DNA of 22,195 bases from NCBI GenBank assembly GCA_938015405.1, contig CALLPZ010000256.1:1-22195 (forward strand), written 5' to 3'. Each line of letters starts with the position of its first letter. Position 1 is the first letter of the stretch. This stretch comes from an uncultured Pseudanabaenaceae cyanobacterium. GTDB taxonomy: Bacteria > Cyanobacteriota > Cyanobacteriia > PCC-9006 > JAAUQQ01. The notes under the pieces were generated by a model. It was not told the origin of the DNA and searched no databases. It saw only the letters and a list, made by a program, of their open reading frames with translations. Shown piece after piece: positions 2,609-21,496 of this stretch. The position numbers and the translations under genes were made by a program.

Positions 2609-4924
2609 TTATTTCACGACACAGTGGGGAAACCGCTGGGCCAGCGCCGTCACAGCTGGGCAAGCTGGTCTTGCATCCACATTCTCCGGCTTACTCCAGC
2701 TAAACGGAGCCTCCTTTGCCGCCCCCATCCACAGCAGTCGCTTCGCCCGCGTCATCGCCACATAGAGCAAGCGAAATTCCTCCCCCTGCTTCAACTGACA
2801 GGCCCGTTTCCAAGCCTCATCTAAATTGGGCAATCGCATCTCAGCCATGGCCTCGGCTTCATGCAAATAGGTGCGAATCTGCGCCCGCGCCACCTCCGCC
2901 AAGGTAAAGTCGCCCAAGAACTTTCCCTGAGGCGGTACCCAGGGCGTTCCAGGAATCATTTGCAACTGCAAAAACGGCAAAAACACATGGTCCCAATCCA
3001 GCCCCTTGGCCTTGTGCATCGTAATCACCGTCACCTGCCCCACCCGCGTATAGCGAGACTCCGCCTCCTCCAAATCCACACCATCAAACCGCTCCGCACT
3101 GACGATATCCACCAGCACCGCAATCACTGCTGCCAGAGACAATTCACCGCCCACGCGACGTAGGGCCTGATCCGCCAACTTATCCGCCGTGGCTAGCTCC
3201 GCTGCTTCATAGTTAAGCGTCATCGCCAGAAATGACATCAGTTCCAAGGTGGGCAGGGCCAGGCGGGCCTGGAGCAGACCATTGCAATAGCGTCTCGCTT
3301 CTTGAACCTTGGGAGGCTGAGGCCCATCCAGCGGGCCAGGATAGAGAAACTGTTCTGGCGAACTGGCCAAAACATTCAAATCCTGAGGTGGAATCAGCTG
3401 TCGCTTGGCCAGGGTCGCGAGGGCTGCCTTGAGGTTATCGGGAGAATGGGGTCGCTGGATAAATTGCAGCAGCGTCAAGATCTCTCGGGGCACAGCGGAC
3501 TGGCGATCGCTTGCCCCCACTTCATAAATGGGAATGTCATGGTCATCCTGAAGCACCGCCAATTGCTGTGCCAACCATCGCCCCTGCTTGTTCTCCCGCA
3601 CCAAAACCGCAGCCTGAGTTCGACCATCTTGCTTAAACAACTGCAGGAGGCGATCGCGAATCTGCCCCACCGTCTCCACAGTATTCTGGGGAAAATGCAA
3701 CTCCAAGCCCAGACCGACCGGCTCTGGATTGGCATTAGGCTGGGGGTCATCCTGGGGAACGGGCTGGATATGCTGGGATTCAAACGGTGCAATGGCATCG
3801 GCACCATATTTAAGATTGACCCAGTCCAAAACGAAGTTGGCTGCATCCAGAATAATTGGGCTACTGCGCCCCGATTGGTTCATAGTGACAAAGCGATTCT
3901 TGGGCTTAGCGCGATCGCAAAATCGTCGAAAGAAAATCGGATCCGCAGGGGTAAACGTGGAATTAATCGCCTGATTGGGGTCACCCACCCGAATCAAATC
4001 TGGGCTTGCCTCCGGCTGATCGGCTCGCCGCCCCAGCACCTCTAGCAGTTGAGTCTGCAACGGTGTGGAGTCCTGGGCCTCATCCTCAAACACCGCGAAA
4101 CATTGCTCCTGCCAAAAAGCGCGAGTGTCTGGGTCACGCAAGACTTTGAGCGCCGCCAAAATCATGTCGTCGTAATCAATCAGTCCCCGACCCTGGAGCA
4201 TGCCCTGGTAGCGATCGTAGAGACCGGCGGCGATCGCCAACACGTCATAGCTAGCTGTAGAGTTTGTTGCGACCTGGGCTCCTTCAGCCAATTCCATTAG
4301 CTGGGGGGGCAGTAATCCCGAACTCTTGGCTTCATGAATCACCGTCGTCGCTAGGCTGGGCAACACCTCCGTGCGCAAAACGCCCTGGCGGCGCAACCGC
4401 TCCGTCTCCTCGCCATCAAACGATTGCCCCAAAATCAGAGATTGGTAAGCGGCAGGAGAATCAGCAATCCACTGGTCAATGCAGCTACGGATGAGGCGAT
4501 GGCTTTGGTTGGCGCTAACCAGGGAGCTGTCTTGCAAGTTGAGGCCGGATAGCTCGGGATGGCGATTGGCAATGCTAAGGGCCAGGCCATGGAGCGTGTT
4601 GACCGAAAAACCAGTCGTGGGGAAGGAGAGCGATCGCAATTCCTGACGAATCTTGGCCTTCAGGTTCGTTGCAGCAGAACGAGTGAAGGTGACAACAATC
4701 AGCTGTCGCCTCAGATTCAGGCGATTCCGAGCAATGGTAATGGCCGCTGCCCCTGCCATCCCGGTAGACTTTCCGGCACCTGGCACCGCTGACACTGCCA
4801 GCTCTCCCCCCTGCCAATCCGCCATTTGCTGCTGCCCCGCCCGCAGACGACGGCGTATGGATTCAATCGCCTCAAGCGTTTGTTGAGGCAAATCAGACTG
4901 GATTGAAACGGGAGCAGAAGCCAT
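2609..4924 (-). CDS. UvrD/Rep/PcrA-family superfamily-1 DNA helicase
   Basis: 771 aa. N-terminal Walker A (AVSAVPGAGKSTGMA), a second nucleotide-binding region, and the C-terminal helicase motif VI LLYVAMTRAKRLLWM. Confidence 0.82.
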   Translation of the reverse strand: MASAPVSIQSDLPQQTLEAIESIRRRLRAGQQQMADWQGGELAVSAVPGAGKSTGMAGAAAITIARNRLNLRRQLIVVTFTRSAATNLKAKIRQELRSLSFPTTGFSVNTLHGLALSIANRHPELSGLNLQDSSLVSANQSHRLIRSCIDQWIADSPAAYQSLILGQSFDGEETERLRRQGVLRTEVLPSLATTVIHEAKSSGLLPPQLMELAEGAQVATNSTASYDVLAIAAGLYDRYQGMLQGRGLIDYDDMILAALKVLRDPDTRAFWQEQCFAVFEDEAQDSTPLQTQLLEVLGRRADQPEASPDLIRVGDPNQAINSTFTPADPIFFRRFCDRAKPKNRFVTMNQSGRSSPIILDAANFVLDWVNLKYGADAIAPFESQHIQPVPQDDPQPNANPEPVGLGLELHFPQNTVETVGQIRDRLLQLFKQDGRTQAAVLVRENKQGRWLAQQLAVLQDDHDIPIYEVGASDRQSAVPREILTLLQFIQRPHSPDNLKAALATLAKRQLIPPQDLNVLASSPEQFLYPGPLDGPQPPKVQEARRYCNGLLQARLALPTLELMSFLAMTLNYEAAELATADKLADQALRRVGGELSLAAVIAVLVDIVSAERFDGVDLEEAESRYTRVGQVTVITMHKAKGLDWDHVFLPFLQLQMIPGTPWVPPQGKFLGDFTLAEVARAQIRTYLHEAEAMAEMRLPNLDEAWKRACQLKQGEEFRLLYVAMTRAKRLLWMGAAKEAPFSWSKPENVDARPACPAVTALAQRFPHCVVK

Positions 4925-7530: not shown

Positions 7531-8403
7531 CTAATCCTTTTCCGCTTCTAGAGCAGCTTTGGCTTCCTGAAGTCTCTGCTTGTGCTCATCACTAACTTCG
7601 GGGTACTGGAGCTTGAGCGCCTTGAGGCGATCGCTAATAATCTCTGCAACGGTCCAGCGCATAAACTTCTTATCGTCCGCTGGAATCACATACCAAGGAG
7701 CAGCCTCGGTGCTGGTATTGCTCAACATGTCCTCATAGGCCTTTTGGTAGTCATCCCACAGGGCACGCTCCTTAAGGTCAGAATGGGAGAATTTCCAGTT
7801 TTTCTCGGGCCGATTGATGCGGTCTAAAAAGCGCTTCTTCTGCTCAGCTTTGGAGACGTTCAAGAAAAACTTGATCACCATGACGCCATTATTCGTCAGA
7901 TACTCCTCAAAGTTGTTGATTTCCTGGAACCGCTGCTTCCAAATCCCCTTGCCAGTTTTGAGTGCCTCCGGCAGCTGCTGCCCAGCCAAAAACTCGGGGT
8001 GGACTCGCACCACCAAGACCTCCTCGTAATAGGAGCGATTAAAGATGCCGATCCGCCCCCGCTCGGGCAGAGCTTTCATATTACGCCAGAGGTAAGTGTG
8101 GTCACGTTCCTCGGCAGAGGGAGACTTGAAACTAAACACCTGACAGCCCTGGGGGTTCACCCCAGACATCACATGTTTGATTGTGCTGTCCTTGCCCGCC
8201 GCATCCATCGCCTGGAAAACCAGCAAAACGGAATGGGTATTGGAGGCATAGAGGACATCCTGATACTTGGCTAATCGCTCCACACCTACTTTGAGCGCAG
8301 CCTTGGCTTCCGCCTTATCCTTAAACTTGCCGCTTTCTTGGGTCTTATGTTTTTTGAGGGAAACTTTGCTACCGGGCTTGATTAGAAAGGGAGAGGAAGC
8401 CAT
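7531..8403 (-). CDS. PPK2-family polyphosphate:nucleotide phosphotransferase
   Basis: 290 aa. Walker A-like MDAAGKDSTIKHV, Walker B/lid regions (IFNRSYYEEVLVVRVHP) and characteristic PPK2 C-terminal segments (WYVIPADDKKFMRW). Confidence 0.88.
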   Translation of the reverse strand: MASSPFLIKPGSKVSLKKHKTQESGKFKDKAEAKAALKVGVERLAKYQDVLYASNTHSVLLVFQAMDAAGKDSTIKHVMSGVNPQGCQVFSFKSPSAEERDHTYLWRNMKALPERGRIGIFNRSYYEEVLVVRVHPEFLAGQQLPEALKTGKGIWKQRFQEINNFEEYLTNNGVMVIKFFLNVSKAEQKKRFLDRINRPEKNWKFSHSDLKERALWDDYQKAYEDMLSNTSTEAAPWYVIPADDKKFMRWTVAEIISDRLKALKLQYPEVSDEHKQRLQEAKAALEAEKD

Positions 8404-13694: not shown

Positions 13695-14276
13695 AATATT
13701 AAAAATGAATTAATCGGCCTGAGCCAAACCAGCTCAAAACCGCAGGGATACACAAACGGACAATACAAATGACCCAATTTAATAGGAGTCAGGGGTAACA
13801 GCACAACCAAACCGCAAATTTTGTGGATTGATTAAACACCGAATCTCTCCCAACTTTGCTCCCAAACAATTGAGCTAGCCATATCTATATCCAGCAGAGG
13901 AGCCCCAAACGACACTTGCGTGAATCTCACCAACACTAAGCCATTTCAAGGGAAAGTTCTTCAGCGAACCAGCGGATTTCACGGAGGATTCATAGCAGCC
14001 AGAAATTTATAAGAAGCTGCAGTAAAGTTTTATTTTTATCCGGCCAGATTAAACAAAAATTAACTTCCTATGCCAACAGAGCAATGACGCTGTAAACGAG
14101 GAAAAACCACAGCTTGACGAGGAATGGACAGAAATACCTATTGCCAATCTCCTCGACATACTACAACATAATACAAGCGATAAAAGAGCCAATAAGCTAG
14201 GCCCCGCAGAACATCATCTAGTCTGATTTTGCTTTGACGGATGGTGGCCTAGACAACTGTAAAAGGAATAACAATC

Positions 14277-15458
14277 ATGGGCTACCAACAGGTCCCTTTT
14301 AAGACTGAAAAACCCGTCCTTTCTTGGGCGAACCATGCTCTGAGTTCTGCTGAGATCACAATGGCCCAGAATGTCGCCTCGCTGCCATTTGTGTTTAAGC
14401 ATGTCTCCCTCATGCCGGATGTGCATTTGGGGAAAGGCGCATTGGTCGGGTCTGTCGTCGCGACGAAGGATGCGATCGTTCCCGCTGCTGTAGGTGTGGA
14501 TATTGGCTGCGGCATGTGCGCCATCAAGCTTCCCTTCCAGGCCAGTCAATTGGAGGGCAAACTCAAAAACATTCGCAAGGATATTGAGGCTGCGATTCCG
14601 ACAGGCTTCAATGAGAATAAGGACGTGGAAAAGTCCGTTCAGAACTGGTCCGGATGGAAGAGCTTTAAAGAGCTCCATCGGGGAGTCCAGGATCGACATA
14701 CCAAAGCGGAGCGGCAGTTAGGAAGCCTTGGCGGTGGCAACCACTTTATTGAGGTTTGCCTAGATGAGGCAGATCAAGTGTGGCTGATGCTCCACTCCGG
14801 CTCGCGCAACATAGGCAATAAGCTGGCCCAGTGCCACATGAGCACTGCCAAGAACTTGGCAAAGCTCTCCGAGGAGAAGCTGCCGGATCTGGATCTGGCC
14901 TACTTCGTCAAAGGTACAGCAGAGTTCGAAGCCTATTGGCGCGATCTGCAATGGGCTCAAGCCTATGCTCTATTCAACCGTGATGTGATGATGGCGCGTT
15001 TCAAACGCATTGTTGAGCAGCATTTAGCCGGAGGAAAGCCAACGAAGCCGATCCTCTCGGTCAATTGCCATCACAACTACGCAGAGAAGGAAATCCACTT
15101 CAACGAAGAGGTGTACGTCACTCGTAAGGGAGCCGTGCGCGCTCGCGAAACGGATTACGGCATCATTCCAGGCTCCATGGGGGCAAAATCCTTCATTGTG
15201 AAGGGCAAGGGCGATCATGCGAGCTTCTGCTCCTGTAGCCACGGAGCTGGAAGATTAATGTCCCGTTCCAAGGCGAAGCGCACCTATTCGCTGGATGATT
15301 TGATCCAGCAGACAGAAGGAATTGAGTGCCGTAAGGATAAGGGGGTATTGGATGAAATTCCTGCGGCTTATAAGCCGATTGAACAAGTGATGGAGAATCA
15401 GAATGACTTGGTGGAGGTGGTGGCAACCCTGCGGCAGGTCGTTTGTGTGAAAGGCTGA
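14277..15458 (+). CDS. rtcB: RNA-splicing ligase RtcB (3'-phosphate/5'-hydroxyl RNA ligase)
   Basis: 393 aa, near-collinear with E. coli RtcB as I recall it: LPFVFKHVSLMPDVHLGKGALVGSVVATKDAIVPAAVGVDIGCGM, GGGNHFIEVCLDE, NCHHNY, SCSHGAGR, and C-terminal LVEVVATLRQVVCVKG. Confidence 0.95.
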   Translation: MGYQQVPFKTEKPVLSWANHALSSAEITMAQNVASLPFVFKHVSLMPDVHLGKGALVGSVVATKDAIVPAAVGVDIGCGMCAIKLPFQASQLEGKLKNIRKDIEAAIPTGFNENKDVEKSVQNWSGWKSFKELHRGVQDRHTKAERQLGSLGGGNHFIEVCLDEADQVWLMLHSGSRNIGNKLAQCHMSTAKNLAKLSEEKLPDLDLAYFVKGTAEFEAYWRDLQWAQAYALFNRDVMMARFKRIVEQHLAGGKPTKPILSVNCHHNYAEKEIHFNEEVYVTRKGAVRARETDYGIIPGSMGAKSFIVKGKGDHASFCSCSHGAGRLMSRSKAKRTYSLDDLIQQTEGIECRKDKGVLDEIPAAYKPIEQVMENQNDLVEVVATLRQVVCVKG

Positions 15459-18575: not shown

Positions 18576-19013
18576 ATGGCTATCGTAGAGATTGAAGACC
18601 TCCGCGAAAAACGCATCGCAACTGAAGTTCTCATTGATACAGAAACCGATGAAGAACGGGCAACTGCTTGGTACTACTACCTGGATGGCAAGGTCACCTT
18701 TCCCTTTCAAGCAACCCTAGAAGGGGATGATGATGTAGAGGTGATCTCCTTGGCAGTGGAGGAGGATTGCCTCGATGAAATGAAGATGGAGGTGCGCCAC
18801 AGTGATAGCTTTGGCGAGGAACCTTTTACAGCGATCGTCATGGAGCTAGAGCCCTTAGATGCCGATGACGATAGCACTGAGGCCATTGAAGACTGGCAGT
18901 ACTGGATAGAGCGGGGCAACCGCTTAAATGAGCCAGAGGAGAGCCAGGTGGATGATTTCCCAGATGATGACTTGGATGATGAGGATGATGTTGACATCAA
19001 TGAGGATGATTAA
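18576..19013 (+). CDS. highly acidic hypothetical protein
   Basis: 145 aa, of which 52 are Asp/Glu and only 8 Lys/Arg. The C-terminus is DDFPDDDLDDEDDVDINEDD. No enzymatic motif recognised. Confidence 0.55.
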   Translation: MAIVEIEDLREKRIATEVLIDTETDEERATAWYYYLDGKVTFPFQATLEGDDDVEVISLAVEEDCLDEMKMEVRHSDSFGEEPFTAIVMELEPLDADDDSTEAIEDWQYWIERGNRLNEPEESQVDDFPDDDLDDEDDVDINEDD

Positions 19014-19032
19014 AGTCAGCGCTGTAGATTTT

Positions 19033-19063
19033 TTGTAGTATTTACTAGCGATTTGTACTACAA
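19033..19063. promoter_or_regulatory. 8-bp inverted repeat TTGTAGTA(19033-19040)/TACTACAA(19056-19063), candidate operator or promoter for the downstream tRNA-like cluster
   Basis: Perfect 8-bp IR 20 nt after the acidic-protein stop and about 130 nt upstream of the tRNA-like gene. The arms also read as TTGTAG, 17-nt spacer, TACTAC, a sigma-70-like -35/-10 arrangement. Confidence 0.25.
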
Positions 19064-19194
19064 GGCGTTATCTTGAAGTTGGATCGTAAGGTTGCTGCGC
19101 GGCAGCGGCTCAGGTTCTGTATACCTGTCTGGCACGCCAAGCTTTGCTTCGGCGCGTACCGCCAACCACAATTCAAGCGAACCACCAAAACACC

Positions 19195-19279
19195 GCACGA
19201 TTAGCTTAGTGGCCTAAAGCATCCGTCCGACTGTTGTCGTGACGGAGGATCGTAGGTTCGACTCCTACATCGCGCTCCA
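19195..19279 (+). tRNA. tRNA-like gene with non-canonical anticodon arm (no 7-nt anticodon loop); possible tRNA mimic or pseudogene
   Basis: Manual cloverleaf: acceptor GCACGAT/ATCGCGC (one A-C mismatch), U8A9, D-arm GCTT-AGTGGCCTA-AAGC, 5-nt variable loop GGATC, T-arm GTAGG-TTCGACT-CCTAC, discriminator T, encoded CCA. The anticodon position is occupied by a 25-nt hairpin TCCGTC-CGAC-tgtt-GTCG-t-GACGGA, which is 10 bp plus one bulge and a tetraloop. Confidence 0.4.
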
Positions 19280-19281
19280 AC

Positions 19282-19356
19282 TGAAAGTTAGCTCACTGGT
19301 AGAGCATCAGACTCATAATCTGCTTGTAACAGGTTCGATTCCTGTACTTTTCACCA
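19282..19356 (+). tRNA. tRNA-Met or tRNA-Ile2 (anticodon CAU)
   Basis: Manual fold: U8A9, D-arm GCTC-ACTGGTA-GAGC, anticodon arm TCAGA-CTCATAA-TCTGC (U33, CAU, A37), 5-nt variable loop, T-arm ACAGG-TTCGATT-CCTGT, discriminator A, encoded CCA. The acceptor stem is AU-rich with a mismatched 1:72 (T-C) and one GU pair. Starts 2 nt after the CCA of the preceding tRNA-like gene. Confidence 0.6.
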
Positions 19357-19368
19357 CCCCGCCCTGGG

Positions 19369-19498
19369 TATGGGCAACTGATTTGGGATCAGTCAACGCC
19401 TTTTAAGCGTTAAACGCCTTCCACGCGTTCCGAGGCGAAAGCCTCGACCTTTGGTAAAGCGGAGTAATCCGCTGTGGTTCGAATCCACATCTTTTAAG
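19369..19498 (+). ncRNA. structured tRNA-related RNA element (tRNA-Lys-like anticodon hairpin + two GNRA hairpins + T-arm), not a canonical tRNA
   Basis: D-arm-like CTGA-TTTGGGA-TCAG (19378-19392). Hairpin AACGC-CTTTTAA-GCGTT (19395-19411) has the anticodon-loop form of tRNA-Lys(UUU). GNRA-capped hairpins GAGGC-GAAA-GCCTC (19431-19444) and GCGGA-GTAA-TCCGC (19459-19472). T-arm TGTGG-TTCGAAT-CCACA (19473-19489). No complementary acceptor strands. 8-nt direct repeat CTTTTAAG at 19400-19407 and 19491-19498. Confidence 0.25.
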
Positions 19499-19851
19499 AC
19501 CCCACAATACTCAGTTCAGTGGCATAGGCAAGATGAACCTGCTTCGGCGGGAATATCAAACCTGTACCGCAGCAGTTGAGGGCTTGCGCGATCGCGACGC
19601 GAGCTTCCAAAAGAATTGCCCTCTCTTCTAGCTTGAGTCTGTTCTTCTAATATTCCATCTTGCTGCCTTGCGAGGCAGTGGGAACGAGTCCCAAGAACGA
19701 CAGATTTGTTTGATGAATTTGCCAAGCTGTCCTACGGGTCATGGAGGCAGAAGCATTCAGGCTTAATCCAGCTAGGGAGAAGCGATTTCGACAGAAGCTT
19801 GCTTTGCGATCGCCCGCCCAACCCTGTGAACAAGAGCCATTGTGGGGTCTT
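19496..19851. repeat. 13-bp perfect inverted repeats (AAGACCCCACAAT / ATTGTGGGGTCTT) flanking a 330-bp ORF-free segment; MITE-like or recombination-site-like
   Basis: Left arm at 19496-19508, right arm at 19839-19851 followed by TTTTT. The interior has no credible ORF, carries two HIP1 sites and a CTGCCT-TGCG-AGGCAG hairpin (19664-19679). Confidence 0.4.
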
Positions 19852-19975
19852 TTTGATTTCATGTAGCGTGCATACTACATTTTGTGCTACATTCAATTCA
19901 GTGATGAGTCTCCAAGCGTGCTGAGAAATCCAGCGTTGCATCGCTGTCGCTCTCCAGAGGAGAGGAGAAGAAATA

Positions 19976-21496
19976 ATGTTCAGAACCTTTTACATCAAAC
20001 CCAGCGAGCGGGGCATTCTTTACCACCGCAGCGATTTTAAGCGCGTCCTGCGTCCCGGCACCCACCGTTTCTTAGGCTGGCATTGGCAGGTCAAGAAGTT
20101 CGATCTCAACCAGCCCAAAGCTAAGCTGGACAATCCTGAGCTACTTCTGCAAAACCACAATGTCCAGATCCGCCAGCATTTCCATGTGGTGCGAACCGGC
20201 TTTAACGAGGCCGCACTGGTGCGAACCGGACAGCGCTGGCTGCTGGTCAGTCCAGACCAATTGCTGCTGTTTTGGCGAGGCTTTGTAGAGGTCGAAGTCT
20301 TTCAGTTCAACCTGGAGGAAAGCCGTGAGTTGCCTCAAAAATTGGCTCAGCAACCGCATGGAAACTTTACTGGCCTCAAGCAGGTTAGCATCGCCGAGTT
20401 TGAGATTGGTCTGCTCTATGTGGATGACAACTTTGTTCGCCCCCTAGAGCCTGGCGACTACGGGTTTTGGACCTACCGTCGCAAGGTGGAGGTGCGCAGC
20501 CTAAACCGCACCCAGCCCAATCCTGTCTTCCCTTTTGAGGATGTGCTGATTGCTCAGCATCCCCAGTTTGTGGCGGACTACTGCACGGCAGTGGAGCTGG
20601 GGGCAGATGAGGTGGCCATTGTGCGGTACAAGGGAAAGGCGATCGCGGTCCTGCCGCCCCACAGCCGCAAGCTGTTTTGGCAAGATGCTGCAGTAGAAAC
20701 CATCAACGTTCAAGCTGAGCCTAAGCTGCCCCAGCGCCTAGTGTCTGAGTTTGTCTCAGGCTCATCCACCGCCATGGCCCTAGCCCTGGACCACATCCAC
20801 GCCCTAGAGGTGTCTGCACAACATGTAGGCCTGCTTTACCTAGATGGCGCTTTGCAAGAGACGCTATCGGCGGGCATTCATGTCTGGTGGGAGTTTGGTC
20901 GCAGCTTTAAGAGCGAAGCGATCGATCTGCGATTGCAAAGCCTAGAGGTTTCGGGTCAGGAGATCTTGTCTAAGGACAAGGTGCCCCTGCGCTTGAACCT
21001 AACGGCGGATTACCGTGTGGTGGATGCGGTACAGGCCCGGACAGCGCTGAAGGATATTGCAGGTTTCCTGTACAAGGAACTGCAATTTGCCCTGCGCGGT
21101 GCAGTGGGGACGAAGAACCTAGATGCTTTGCTGGAGGATAAGGGAGCGATCGACCAGGCCATTTCTGAGTACATGGCGGAGAAGGTTCCGGCCTACGGTT
21201 TGGAGCTACGTTCTGTCGGCGTCAAAGACATTATCTTGCCCGGTGAAATCAAGGCGATTTTGGGTCAAGTGGTAGCGGCAGAGAAATCGGCCCAGGCCAA
21301 TGTGATCCGCCGCCGCGAGGAAACTGCTGCCACGCGCAGTATGCTCAACACTGCCAAGGTGATGGAGGACAATCCCATTGCGCTGCGGCTGAAGGAGCTG
21401 GAGGTGCTGGAGCGCATCGCGGAGAAGATCGAGCAGATTAATGTAAATGGCAGCTTGGACAGTATCTTGACTGAGTTGATTAGCATTAAGCAGTAG
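19976..21496 (+). CDS. SPFH (band-7/stomatin/HflK-C-like) domain protein with reiterated N-terminal SPFH-type segments
   Basis: 506 aa. The C-terminal 200 aa form a clear SPFH domain and coiled coil (LRLNLTADYRVVDAVQARTALKDIAGFLYKELQFALRGAVG...ILPGEIKAILGQVVAAEKSAQANVIRRREETAA...LKELEVLERIAEKIE). The N-terminal 300 aa contain three further copies of the SPFH opening beta-segment pattern (IKPSERGILYHRSDFKRVLRPGTHRF; VSIAEFEIGLLYVDDNFVRPLEPGDYGF; VAIVRYKGKAIAVLPPHSRKLFW). No N-terminal TM helix. Confidence 0.8.
   Translation: MFRTFYIKPSERGILYHRSDFKRVLRPGTHRFLGWHWQVKKFDLNQPKAKLDNPELLLQNHNVQIRQHFHVVRTGFNEAALVRTGQRWLLVSPDQLLLFWRGFVEVEVFQFNLEESRELPQKLAQQPHGNFTGLKQVSIAEFEIGLLYVDDNFVRPLEPGDYGFWTYRRKVEVRSLNRTQPNPVFPFEDVLIAQHPQFVADYCTAVELGADEVAIVRYKGKAIAVLPPHSRKLFWQDAAVETINVQAEPKLPQRLVSEFVSGSSTAMALALDHIHALEVSAQHVGLLYLDGALQETLSAGIHVWWEFGRSFKSEAIDLRLQSLEVSGQEILSKDKVPLRLNLTADYRVVDAVQARTALKDIAGFLYKELQFALRGAVGTKNLDALLEDKGAIDQAISEYMAEKVPAYGLELRSVGVKDIILPGEIKAILGQVVAAEKSAQANVIRRREETAATRSMLNTAKVMEDNPIALRLKELEVLERIAEKIEQINVNGSLDSILTELISIKQ

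Follow-up and report, generated by a model that had tools for sequence, protein, structure and literature searches.

What is the segment of 142 bases that lies at positions 19357-19498 of this stretch of DNA, immediately 3' of a tRNA-like gene with the anticodon CAU, and that carries hairpins resembling a D-arm, an anticodon arm and a T-arm? The window, i.e., the whole stretch of 22,195 nucleotides (nt) that was analyzed, is cyanobacterial, as judged from its HIP1 sites (GCGATCGC) and its CcbP gene, and its nearest named relatives are metagenome-assembled genomes of Pseudanabaenaceae. The segment sits inside a 963-nt spacer that runs from ccbP (18576-19013, on the 5' side) to a gene for a slipin-family protein, and rtcB lies 4.5 kb upstream. 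The initial annotation took the segment for a tRNA-derived element with a Lys-like anticodon hairpin, possibly left by an insertion into a tRNA-Lys gene, and offered a folded RNA as a fallback. It is the fallback that comparison with relatives bears out, because the segment is under purifying selection, folds on the plus strand and belongs to a large structured RNA that is itself conserved. On balance, the segment (hereafter, the module) is probably an internal, lineage-variable accessory piece of a plus-strand noncoding RNA of ~800 nt, the cyanobacterial form of the "band-7-associated tRNA-like RNA." The bounds 19357-19498 thus cut through a larger conserved RNA at about 19048-19855. All features of the window given below are on the plus strand unless stated otherwise.

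Syntenic loci, designated by L numbers, were gathered via CcbP homologues and a DNA motif scan. The entire ccbP-slipin spacer was alignable in five further Pseudanabaenaceae lineages, in which CcbP has 79-90% identity to the protein of the window. While the module is 79-87% identical between these genomes and the window, identity in the same pairs of genomes is no more than 47-56% at 4-fold degenerate sites of the neighboring slipin gene, a contrast that supports purifying selection on the segment. The region is evidently noncoding, since indels among the relatives are not multiples of three and no open reading frame (ORF) of at least 60 amino acids (aa) covers 19014-19515. When the six named helices were examined in the alignment (A6), 96.4% of cells were paired, compared with 21-41% when the 3' partners were slid. 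Four pairs of the module are changed on both sides, three in hairpin h3 and one in hairpin h4, and U.G pairs identify the plus strand as the one that folds. The folding energy of a 157-nt stretch is -52.9 kcal/mol (z = -3.69), better than that of 200 of 200 shuffles. The initial annotation had named a lack of conservation and of compensatory changes as fatal to its proposal; instead, the segment is conserved in relatives, and two of its hairpins vary in a compensatory manner. The scan against all of Rfam that it called for was also run, and Rfam 15 gave zero matches to the segment, even when the segment was searched alone at E <= 10.

The D-arm-like hairpin, the T-arm, the two hairpins capped by GAAA and GUAA, and the two copies of the 8-mer CTTTTAAG (19400-19407 and 19491-19498) that had been described are all present in the sequence. 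Read from its 5' end, the module opens with a hairpin that we call P0 (19361-19375; GCCC-UGGGUAU-GGGC), whose equivalent in L027, GUCC-UGGGUAC-GGAC, is a compensatory change, and which also has counterparts in L021 and L024. The D-arm-like hairpin follows (19378-19392; CUGAU-UUGGG-AUCAG); its loop GG is kept and its stem, with one U.G pair, is invariant, and it recurs in L024, a locus without a T-arm. Next comes h1 (19395-19411; AACGC-CUUUUAA-GCGUU), the supposed Lys anticodon mimic, which holds the first copy of CTTTTAAG. The hairpins listed in the initial annotation are real, but that inventory overlooked h2 (19413-19429; AACGC-CUUCCAC-GCGUU), an 18-nt tandem copy of h1; Tandem Repeats Finder reports a period of 18 and 1.9 copies over 19395-19429. 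The window, L016 and L018 each have two copies of the AACGC hairpin, and L005 (with an h1-type loop) and L007 (with an h2-type loop) have one, so that its duplication is old or recurrent. A duplication specific to the window was ruled out, given that L016 and L018 also have two copies and that L005 and L007 keep different ones.

The 3' half of the module contains the covarying hairpins. In h3 (19431-19446; CGAGGC-GAAA-GCCUCG), three of six pairs are changed on both sides, and the loop is GAAA or 7 nt long in relatives. The joiner ACCUUUGGUAA (19447-19457) carries a GG(U/A)(A/U)A motif that accompanies the T-arm in seven of seven homologues, that of Candidatus Parabeggiatoa (ACUUUGGAUA) included. 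Hairpin h4 (19458-19473; AGCGGA-GUAA-UCCGCU) has one compensatory pair, C-G to G-C in L007; its equivalent in Parabeggiatoa is AGCC-UUCG-GGCU, and its loop reads GUAA, UUAA, GCAA, GAAA or UUCG across the homologues. GNRA loops, which had been noted in the element, are thus no constant feature, since relatives show UUAA, UUCG or 7-nt loops instead. Directly abutting h4 is the T-arm (19474-19488; GUGG-UUCGAAU-CCAC), which has a canonical T-loop and is unchanged in seven homologues; a coaxial stack of the two is possible. The module ends in a U-rich, variable linker, AUCUUUUA (19489-19496), which was flagged together with the T-arm as a weak terminator-like site.

How tRNA-like, then, is this segment? 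Its T-arm is canonical, but the Rfam tRNA model and ARAGORN both reject it: there is no RF00005 match at 19357-19498 at E <= 10 (gathering score, 29 bits) and no ARAGORN call. It resembles a canonical or class II tRNA in its UUCGAAU T-loop, in the hairpin directly 5' of it, which recalls a long variable arm, and in the GG loop upstream, whereas it differs in having no acceptor stem, no conserved anticodon loop, and an 11-nt joiner between h3 and h4. The absence of an acceptor stem had been recognized correctly: none can be drawn, and the sequences on either side of the D-like hairpin and the T-arm are not complementary. An acceptor-like UGGG/CCCA pairing in the single-sequence minimum free energy fold was rejected, as it is unconserved and competes with the covarying closing helix of the downstream domain. 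We also discarded a pseudoknot or surrogate acceptor between the linker that follows the T-arm and either the two CUUUUAAG copies or the relatives' h1/h2 loops, for which RNAduplex gave +2.6 to -3.7 kcal/mol; in no lineage were these loop-linker pairing energies better than with shuffled linkers.

The proposal that a mobile element entered the anticodon loop of a tRNA-Lys gene and left CTTTTAAG target-site duplications is refuted by the comparative data, and we give it next to no credence. What spoke for it was the pair of CTTTTAAG copies, one within the 7-nt loop CUUUUAA. The hairpin around that loop is real, but it is a tandem duplicate, and the loop is unique to the lineage of the window. 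The equivalent loops are CGACAAA in L005 and L018, CGAAAAA in L016 and CUGAAAA in L007; these and the further variants CUGUAAA and CUGCAAA have neither U33 nor a UUU anticodon, so that the "Lys anticodon" falls away. Likewise, CTTTTAAG is doubled, and the UUU loop found, only in the window's own species; the 8-mer repeat is missing from all relatives outside that species, where the linker after the T-arm reads ACUUUUCGA, AGUCUUGGA, AUUGUUUGA or GUUUUUUGA. Its excess is barely above chance, with three copies in the window against 0.72 expected, a count reached by 3 of 100 shuffles. Since the relatives share the hairpins of the "insert" and its T-arm, with compensatory changes, the "insert" is not a recent insertion. 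Nor does it look like a transposable element or a miniature inverted-repeat transposable element: there are no terminal inverted repeats, no further copy of the module was found elsewhere in the window, and relatives keep the "insert." A BLAST search of the region against phages and plasmids gave generic tRNA matches of ~60 nt only.

The larger RNA is composed, in order, of a 5' three-way junction, two CCA-ending tRNA-like units, the module, and a 355-nt rod domain. We infer its transcription limits from the sequence: it probably starts just downstream of a TGTAGTAT box at 19034-19041, and its end is placed at about 19855, at a closing helix and U-tract roughly 120 nt before the slipin gene. 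The 5' domain (19090-19167) folds into a three-way junction that has a hairpin loop, UUCUGUAU, without any variation; RNAalifold with 11 homologues gives 18 pairs, of which 8 show compensatory changes, and a covariance model of this domain (R1) scores 89.6 bits at 19090-19167. The 3' rod-like domain (19497-19854) is closed by a helix of AGACCCCACAA (19497-19507) and UUGUGGGGUCU (19840-19850), followed by the U-tract (19850-19854). Of 121 pairs predicted there, 14 are compensatory with only three lineages (RNAalifold); the closing helix covaries from A-U to G-C, and an inner helix GAGUCUGU/ACAGAUUU becomes GAGUAUGU/ACAUAUUU in L021 and L027 and GAGUUUGU/ACAAAU in L024.

Both tRNA-like units between the 5' domain and the module look like mimics rather than decoders. 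Unit 1 (19195-19279), with encoded CCA, is an ARAGORN "tRNA-???" that scores 48.2 bits with the Rfam tRNA model and has a 14-nt insert; a long hairpin replaces its anticodon arm, with 13-14 nt in place of the 7-nt loop, and the remaining cloverleaf and the CCA are conserved among relatives. The extended hairpin (UCCGUC-CGAC-UGUU-GUCG-U-GACGGA) is hypervariable, and GUAA-capped or other hairpins stand in its place in relatives. Unit 2 (19282-19356), the conserved unit of the band-7-associated tRNA type, also encodes CCA and has the anticodon CAU, an A/U-rich acceptor stem and a U1xC72 mismatch. Its body is almost unchanged while its anticodon varies: CAU in L024 as well, UAU in L018 (2174-2249), GUU in L021 (1906-1980), AAA in L019 (416-489), or a non-canonical loop. 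Annotation pipelines would label these orthologues tRNA-Met, Ile, Asn or Phe. The encoded CCA of the tRNA-like units is immediately followed by the invariant CCCCGCCC. A further modular variation is an insert of ~80 nt between the 5' domain and unit 1 in L005 (~4610-4700), L015, L016 and L018, with hairpins and a HIP1-like GGCGATGGC/GGCGATCGC; it has no counterpart in the window or L007.

We then examined the distribution of the RNA with an nhmmer profile built from six Pseudanabaenaceae RNAs. In L024, another cyanobacterium, the 5' part matched at E = 3e-64 and the 3' domain at 6e-20. L021, the alr0739-alr0740 locus of an Anabaena FACHB-709/PCC 7120-type genome, matched at E = 8e-20, and its 3' domain is homologous too. 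In L019, from Candidatus Parabeggiatoa, the tRNA-like unit matched at 6e-9 and the 5' domain at 1e-6, and in L027, which belongs to a 660-aa slipin subfamily, the RNA was found by reading the sequence. A slipin homologue lies downstream of the RNA at every homologous locus, and a tRNA-like gene lies upstream of the slipin gene, co-oriented with it, in the window, L005, L007, L016, L018, L019, L021, L024, L027, L028, L029 and L030. The content of the module differs by locus group: the full module is present in the Pseudanabaenaceae group (window, L002, L005, L007, L016 and L018); Parabeggiatoa (L019) has a reduced one, consisting of an AACGAU hairpin, the joiner ACUUUGGAUA, AGCC-UUCG-GGCU and the T-arm; L024 has P0 and the D-like hairpin only; and L021 and L027 have only P0. 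Because its presence differs in this way, we view the module as a variable expansion that lies between the conserved tRNA-like unit and the 3' domain.

In L019 (Candidatus Parabeggiatoa sp. HSG14), the slipin gene at 998-2090, with one N-terminal repeat, is split into overlapping ORFs at 998-1495 and 1407-2090, by either a frameshift or an assembly error. Some candidate occurrences were dismissed: a match of R1 in L008 proved false, as it falls on a low-complexity repeat of GGCTGG, and a metagenome scan with the 5'-domain motif returned a single chance match within a coding region (L020). A viral scan with the same motif gave zero matches. An ARAGORN "tRNA-???" on the minus strand of the window at 7989-8064, with a 2-nt anticodon "ta," lies inside a long ORF (7531-8403, minus strand) and is probably a false positive, without an Rfam report at the gathering score.

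The slipin-family SPFH/Band-7 protein encoded downstream of the RNA (19976-21496) has 506 aa, a Pfam Band_7 match at 5e-30 and two beta-rich N-terminal repeats. Its homologues are named "slipin family protein," and a PADLOC scan of it found no defense-system match. Just 5' of its start are two conserved hairpins, CAGCG-UUGCAU-CGCUG (19931-19946) and CUCUCC-AGA-GGAGAG (19950-19964), the second of which would sequester the GGAG ribosome-binding site. The rtcB gene (14277-15458; Pfam RtcB, 1.8e-125) is preceded by an operator-like ATACTACAACATAATACA at 14158-14175. In the window, exact TGTAGTAT sites number three only, before rtcB (14158), before the RNA (19034) and before slipin (19872). That before the RNA forms part of a putative promoter/operator (19034-19062), in which TGTAGTAT (19034-19041) contains a TAGTAT -10-like hexamer and is accompanied by an inverted near-copy, GTACTACA (19055-19062); that before slipin (19872-19879) is on the minus strand. 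In the Anabaena-type locus L021, two TGTAGTAT boxes lie between the RNA and alr0739. In Anabaena PCC 7120, TrcR represses alr0739-alr0740 (slipin), rtcB and the trn tRNA operon via TGTAGTAT, which overlaps the -10 element, and these genes are induced by translation-inhibiting antibiotics (PMC10272220). The three TGTAGTAT sites before rtcB, the RNA and slipin therefore predict a TrcR-type translation-stress regulon in this Pseudanabaenaceae genome.

Similar arrangements are found in Proteobacteria. Using tblastn against plasmid and chromid records, we detected slipin homologues in Escherichia coli, Citrobacter, Burkholderia and Photobacterium. In Citrobacter, slipin and rtcR are divergently oriented and a nucleotidyltransferase gene comes after slipin; the slipin-nucleotidyltransferase pair is also present in E. 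coli. Upstream of slipin, both E. coli and Citrobacter have a leader of ~300 nt with a T-arm-like GGGUUCGAUUCCC (GGGTTCGATTCCC), for which there was no Rfam or ARAGORN match; it occurs in 1632 of 5426 complete E. coli genomes and is left unannotated by the Prokaryotic Genome Annotation Pipeline. The leader comes after a sigma-54-type promoter (TGGCACGCTTCTGGCA / TGGCACGCTTCTCGCA), the two together occupying 3680-3995 in L025, from E. coli STEC639, and 3750-4065 in L026, from Citrobacter freundii. In Burkholderia and Photobacterium, ARAGORN called aberrant tRNA-like genes 200-330 nt upstream of slipin. Burkholderia stagnalis (L028 2620-2665) has, directly 5' of its tRNA-like gene, an acceptor and T-arm minihelix (GGGCGC...CCUGGGUUCGAAUCCCGGGGCGCCC-ACC) without D and anticodon arms; because Burkholderia adds this minihelix, truncated tRNA-like units are a trait of the family. 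With the covariance model of the 5' domain, a match was obtained at the expected place in Photobacterium, which was not among the training sequences (E = 0.018), and a weak one in B. cenocepacia (E = 0.74).

To which known system does this RNA belong? In the abstract of Burroughs & Aravind (NAR 2016), SPFH/Band-7 modules are reportedly put forward, together with "a novel tRNA-like molecule," as cofactors that scaffold RNA repair. As described in a preprint that cites this work (bioRxiv 10.1101/312249), a Band-7 protein and a predicted tRNA associated with band-7 (b7a-tRNA) adjoin RtcB. By synteny and composition, our RNA appears to belong with these predicted RNAs: a tRNA-like gene stands beside an SPFH/Band-7 gene with a link to RtcB, here in cyanobacteria, Parabeggiatoa, Burkholderia and Photobacterium, and the association with RtcB is seen in the TGTAGTAT box shared by rtcB of the window and in RtcR adjoining slipin in Citrobacter. 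To our knowledge, b7a-tRNA has never been validated experimentally or annotated, and it has no Rfam model. There are differences from b7a-tRNA, however: the flagged segment does not correspond to the tRNA-like unit but is an extra module, lacking an acceptor stem, downstream of that unit, and the RNA in cyanobacteria is much longer (~800 nt), as it also includes a conserved junction domain at its 5' end and a rod domain of 355 nt at its 3' end. Neither these large domains nor the varying number of mimics appears to have been catalogued, as no Rfam model covers them, the 2016 prediction being compared by way of its description in the citing preprint.

A second relative to consider is the YrlA-type bacterial Y RNA (RF02553), which has a tRNA-like domain and a closed acceptor-like stem and is encoded with rsr and rtcBA. 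The module shares with YrlA a non-decoding tRNA mimicry around a T-arm and a loop-closed stem, as well as a genomic and regulatory link to RtcB; it differs in that the stem precedes the T-arm. Wolin and colleagues proposed that YrlA and b7a-tRNA are redundant in function, as the preprint describes it (bioRxiv 10.1101/312249). Identity with YrlA was rejected: the match reaches 21.3 bits against a gathering score of 69 (E = 0.093) and spans only the junction of the two tandem tRNA-like units, while the module alone gave no match to the model. Among 10 neighboring ORFs scanned, no Ro/TROVE gene was detected. The trn operon of Anabaena PCC 7120 (PMC10272220) is similar in its TGTAGTAT promoter box, its tightly spaced CCA-encoding tRNA-type units and its co-regulation with rtcB and slipin (alr0740), the last of these seen in Anabaena. 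Conversely, the slipin-associated RNA has one to three units only, set between conserved non-tRNA domains; such units are syntenic with slipin across phyla, and their anticodon region is variable or replaced by a hairpin.

Other explanations of the module have to be weighed against an accessory piece of a structured RNA. It might be a processing or termination element, i.e., the 3' trailer of the tRNA-like pair acting as a weak intrinsic terminator or as a site for RNase P, Z or E, which would free the CCA-ending units from the 3' rod or give short and long isoforms. The T-arm hairpin and the UCUUUUAAGA after it are the sole terminator-like site in a scan of 18900-20100, but one such site is also what shuffles lead one to expect (1.0), and the stem has 4-5 pairs only. 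The linker is U-rich in all relatives, yet its sequence is unconserved. T-arm and elbow shapes are recognized by RNase P, and the invariant CCCCGCCC directly after the encoded CCA speaks for this role too; however, such a role leaves the conserved h3, h4 and joiner unexplained, and in Nostocales the tRNA-like unit and 3' domain are still joined without the module. We thus regard this explanation as unlikely. Another is that the RNA is a cis-regulatory leader of the slipin gene, in which the closing helix and U-tract, both of them present, would terminate transcription conditionally and the tRNA-like parts would act as sensors of stress related to tRNA. The RNA and slipin always share a strand, with the RNA directly upstream of slipin or of alr0739-slipin, and E. 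coli and Citrobacter have their T-arm-containing leader between the sigma-54-type promoter and the slipin start. We nevertheless find a leader rather improbable: a TGTAGTAT box with a -10-like element (19872-19879) stands between the RNA and slipin, as do two before alr0739 in the Anabaena-type locus, and because of these boxes separate promoters are suggested; moreover, no conserved alternative pairing that competes with the closing helix was found.

Alternatively, the module could be what decay has left of a third tRNA gene in a small stress-tRNA array, comparable to the pseudo-tRNAs of the Anabaena trn operon and kept as a functionless spacer. The canonical T-arm, the TrcR-type box and the tandem layout with 2-nt spacing and CCA-encoding neighbors speak for such a relic, as do an ARAGORN call of an 88-nt "tRNA-Phe(aaa)" for the equivalent in L018 and the loss or reduction of the module elsewhere. 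A functionless spacer is nonetheless hard to reconcile with an identity of 79-87% against 47-56% at neutral sites, with the compensatory changes in h3 and h4, with a joiner-h4-T-arm core retained in Parabeggiatoa, a different phylum, and with the lack of any matching tRNA model; we judge decay quite improbable.

The reading that we prefer, an accessory module of a band-7-associated tRNA-like RNA, has several points to its disadvantage. The module is missing in Nostocales, and most cyanobacteria can do without it. No variation is seen in the D-like, h1, h2 and T stems, which indicates constraint but is silent on pairing, and covariation within the module is thin (four pairs), because only ~5 independent lineages carry it. 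All Pseudanabaenaceae copies come from metagenome assemblies. The partner for an elbow is uncertain, because the D-like hairpin occurs without a T-arm in L024 and the T-arm without a D-like hairpin in L019. For the 5' domain, homology with Proteobacteria is only borderline, and the likeness to b7a-tRNA is drawn from the description in the citing preprint (bioRxiv 10.1101/312249).

If the module is such an accessory piece, how might it work? Because h4 abuts the T-arm, the two could stack in a minihelix-like manner, as a closed, tetraloop-capped look-alike of the acceptor/T minihelix. The T-loop may be docked by a conserved GG, as it is by G18/G19 in tRNA, with the joiner or the D-like loop as the source. 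The module would then present a third tRNA-elbow-shaped surface of the RNA, without an anticodon and without a free CCA end. The whole RNA would be induced together with rtcB and slipin during translation stress, and might serve as a cofactor or scaffold of a slipin oligomer and the RNA-repair machinery, its tRNA-shaped units attracting tRNA-handling enzymes. In its domain order, the slipin matches the major vault protein: beta-rich repeats at the N terminus are followed by an SPFH "shoulder" and then by a C-terminal helix. Going further, one may speculate, as a long shot, that translation stress switches on a soluble, vault-like ribonucleoprotein made of the ~800-nt RNA and slipin, in or on whose cage the tRNA-shaped units dock RtcB, the nucleotidyltransferase and RNase P. 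If this were true, the number of tRNA-shaped units (1-3) would tune valency between lineages, and the particle would be the first bacterial SPFH-cage ribonucleoprotein and might be related by descent to the vault particle.

For genome annotation, the RNA accounts for "tRNA-???" and odd tRNA-Met, Asn and Phe calls beside slipin genes. For the translation-stress regulon of Anabaena PCC 7120, it is a concrete candidate partner, lying directly upstream of alr0739-alr0740. As for the family, its cyanobacterial version is a large RNA in which conserved non-tRNA domains are combined with tRNA mimics that vary in number and may be full, modified or truncated.

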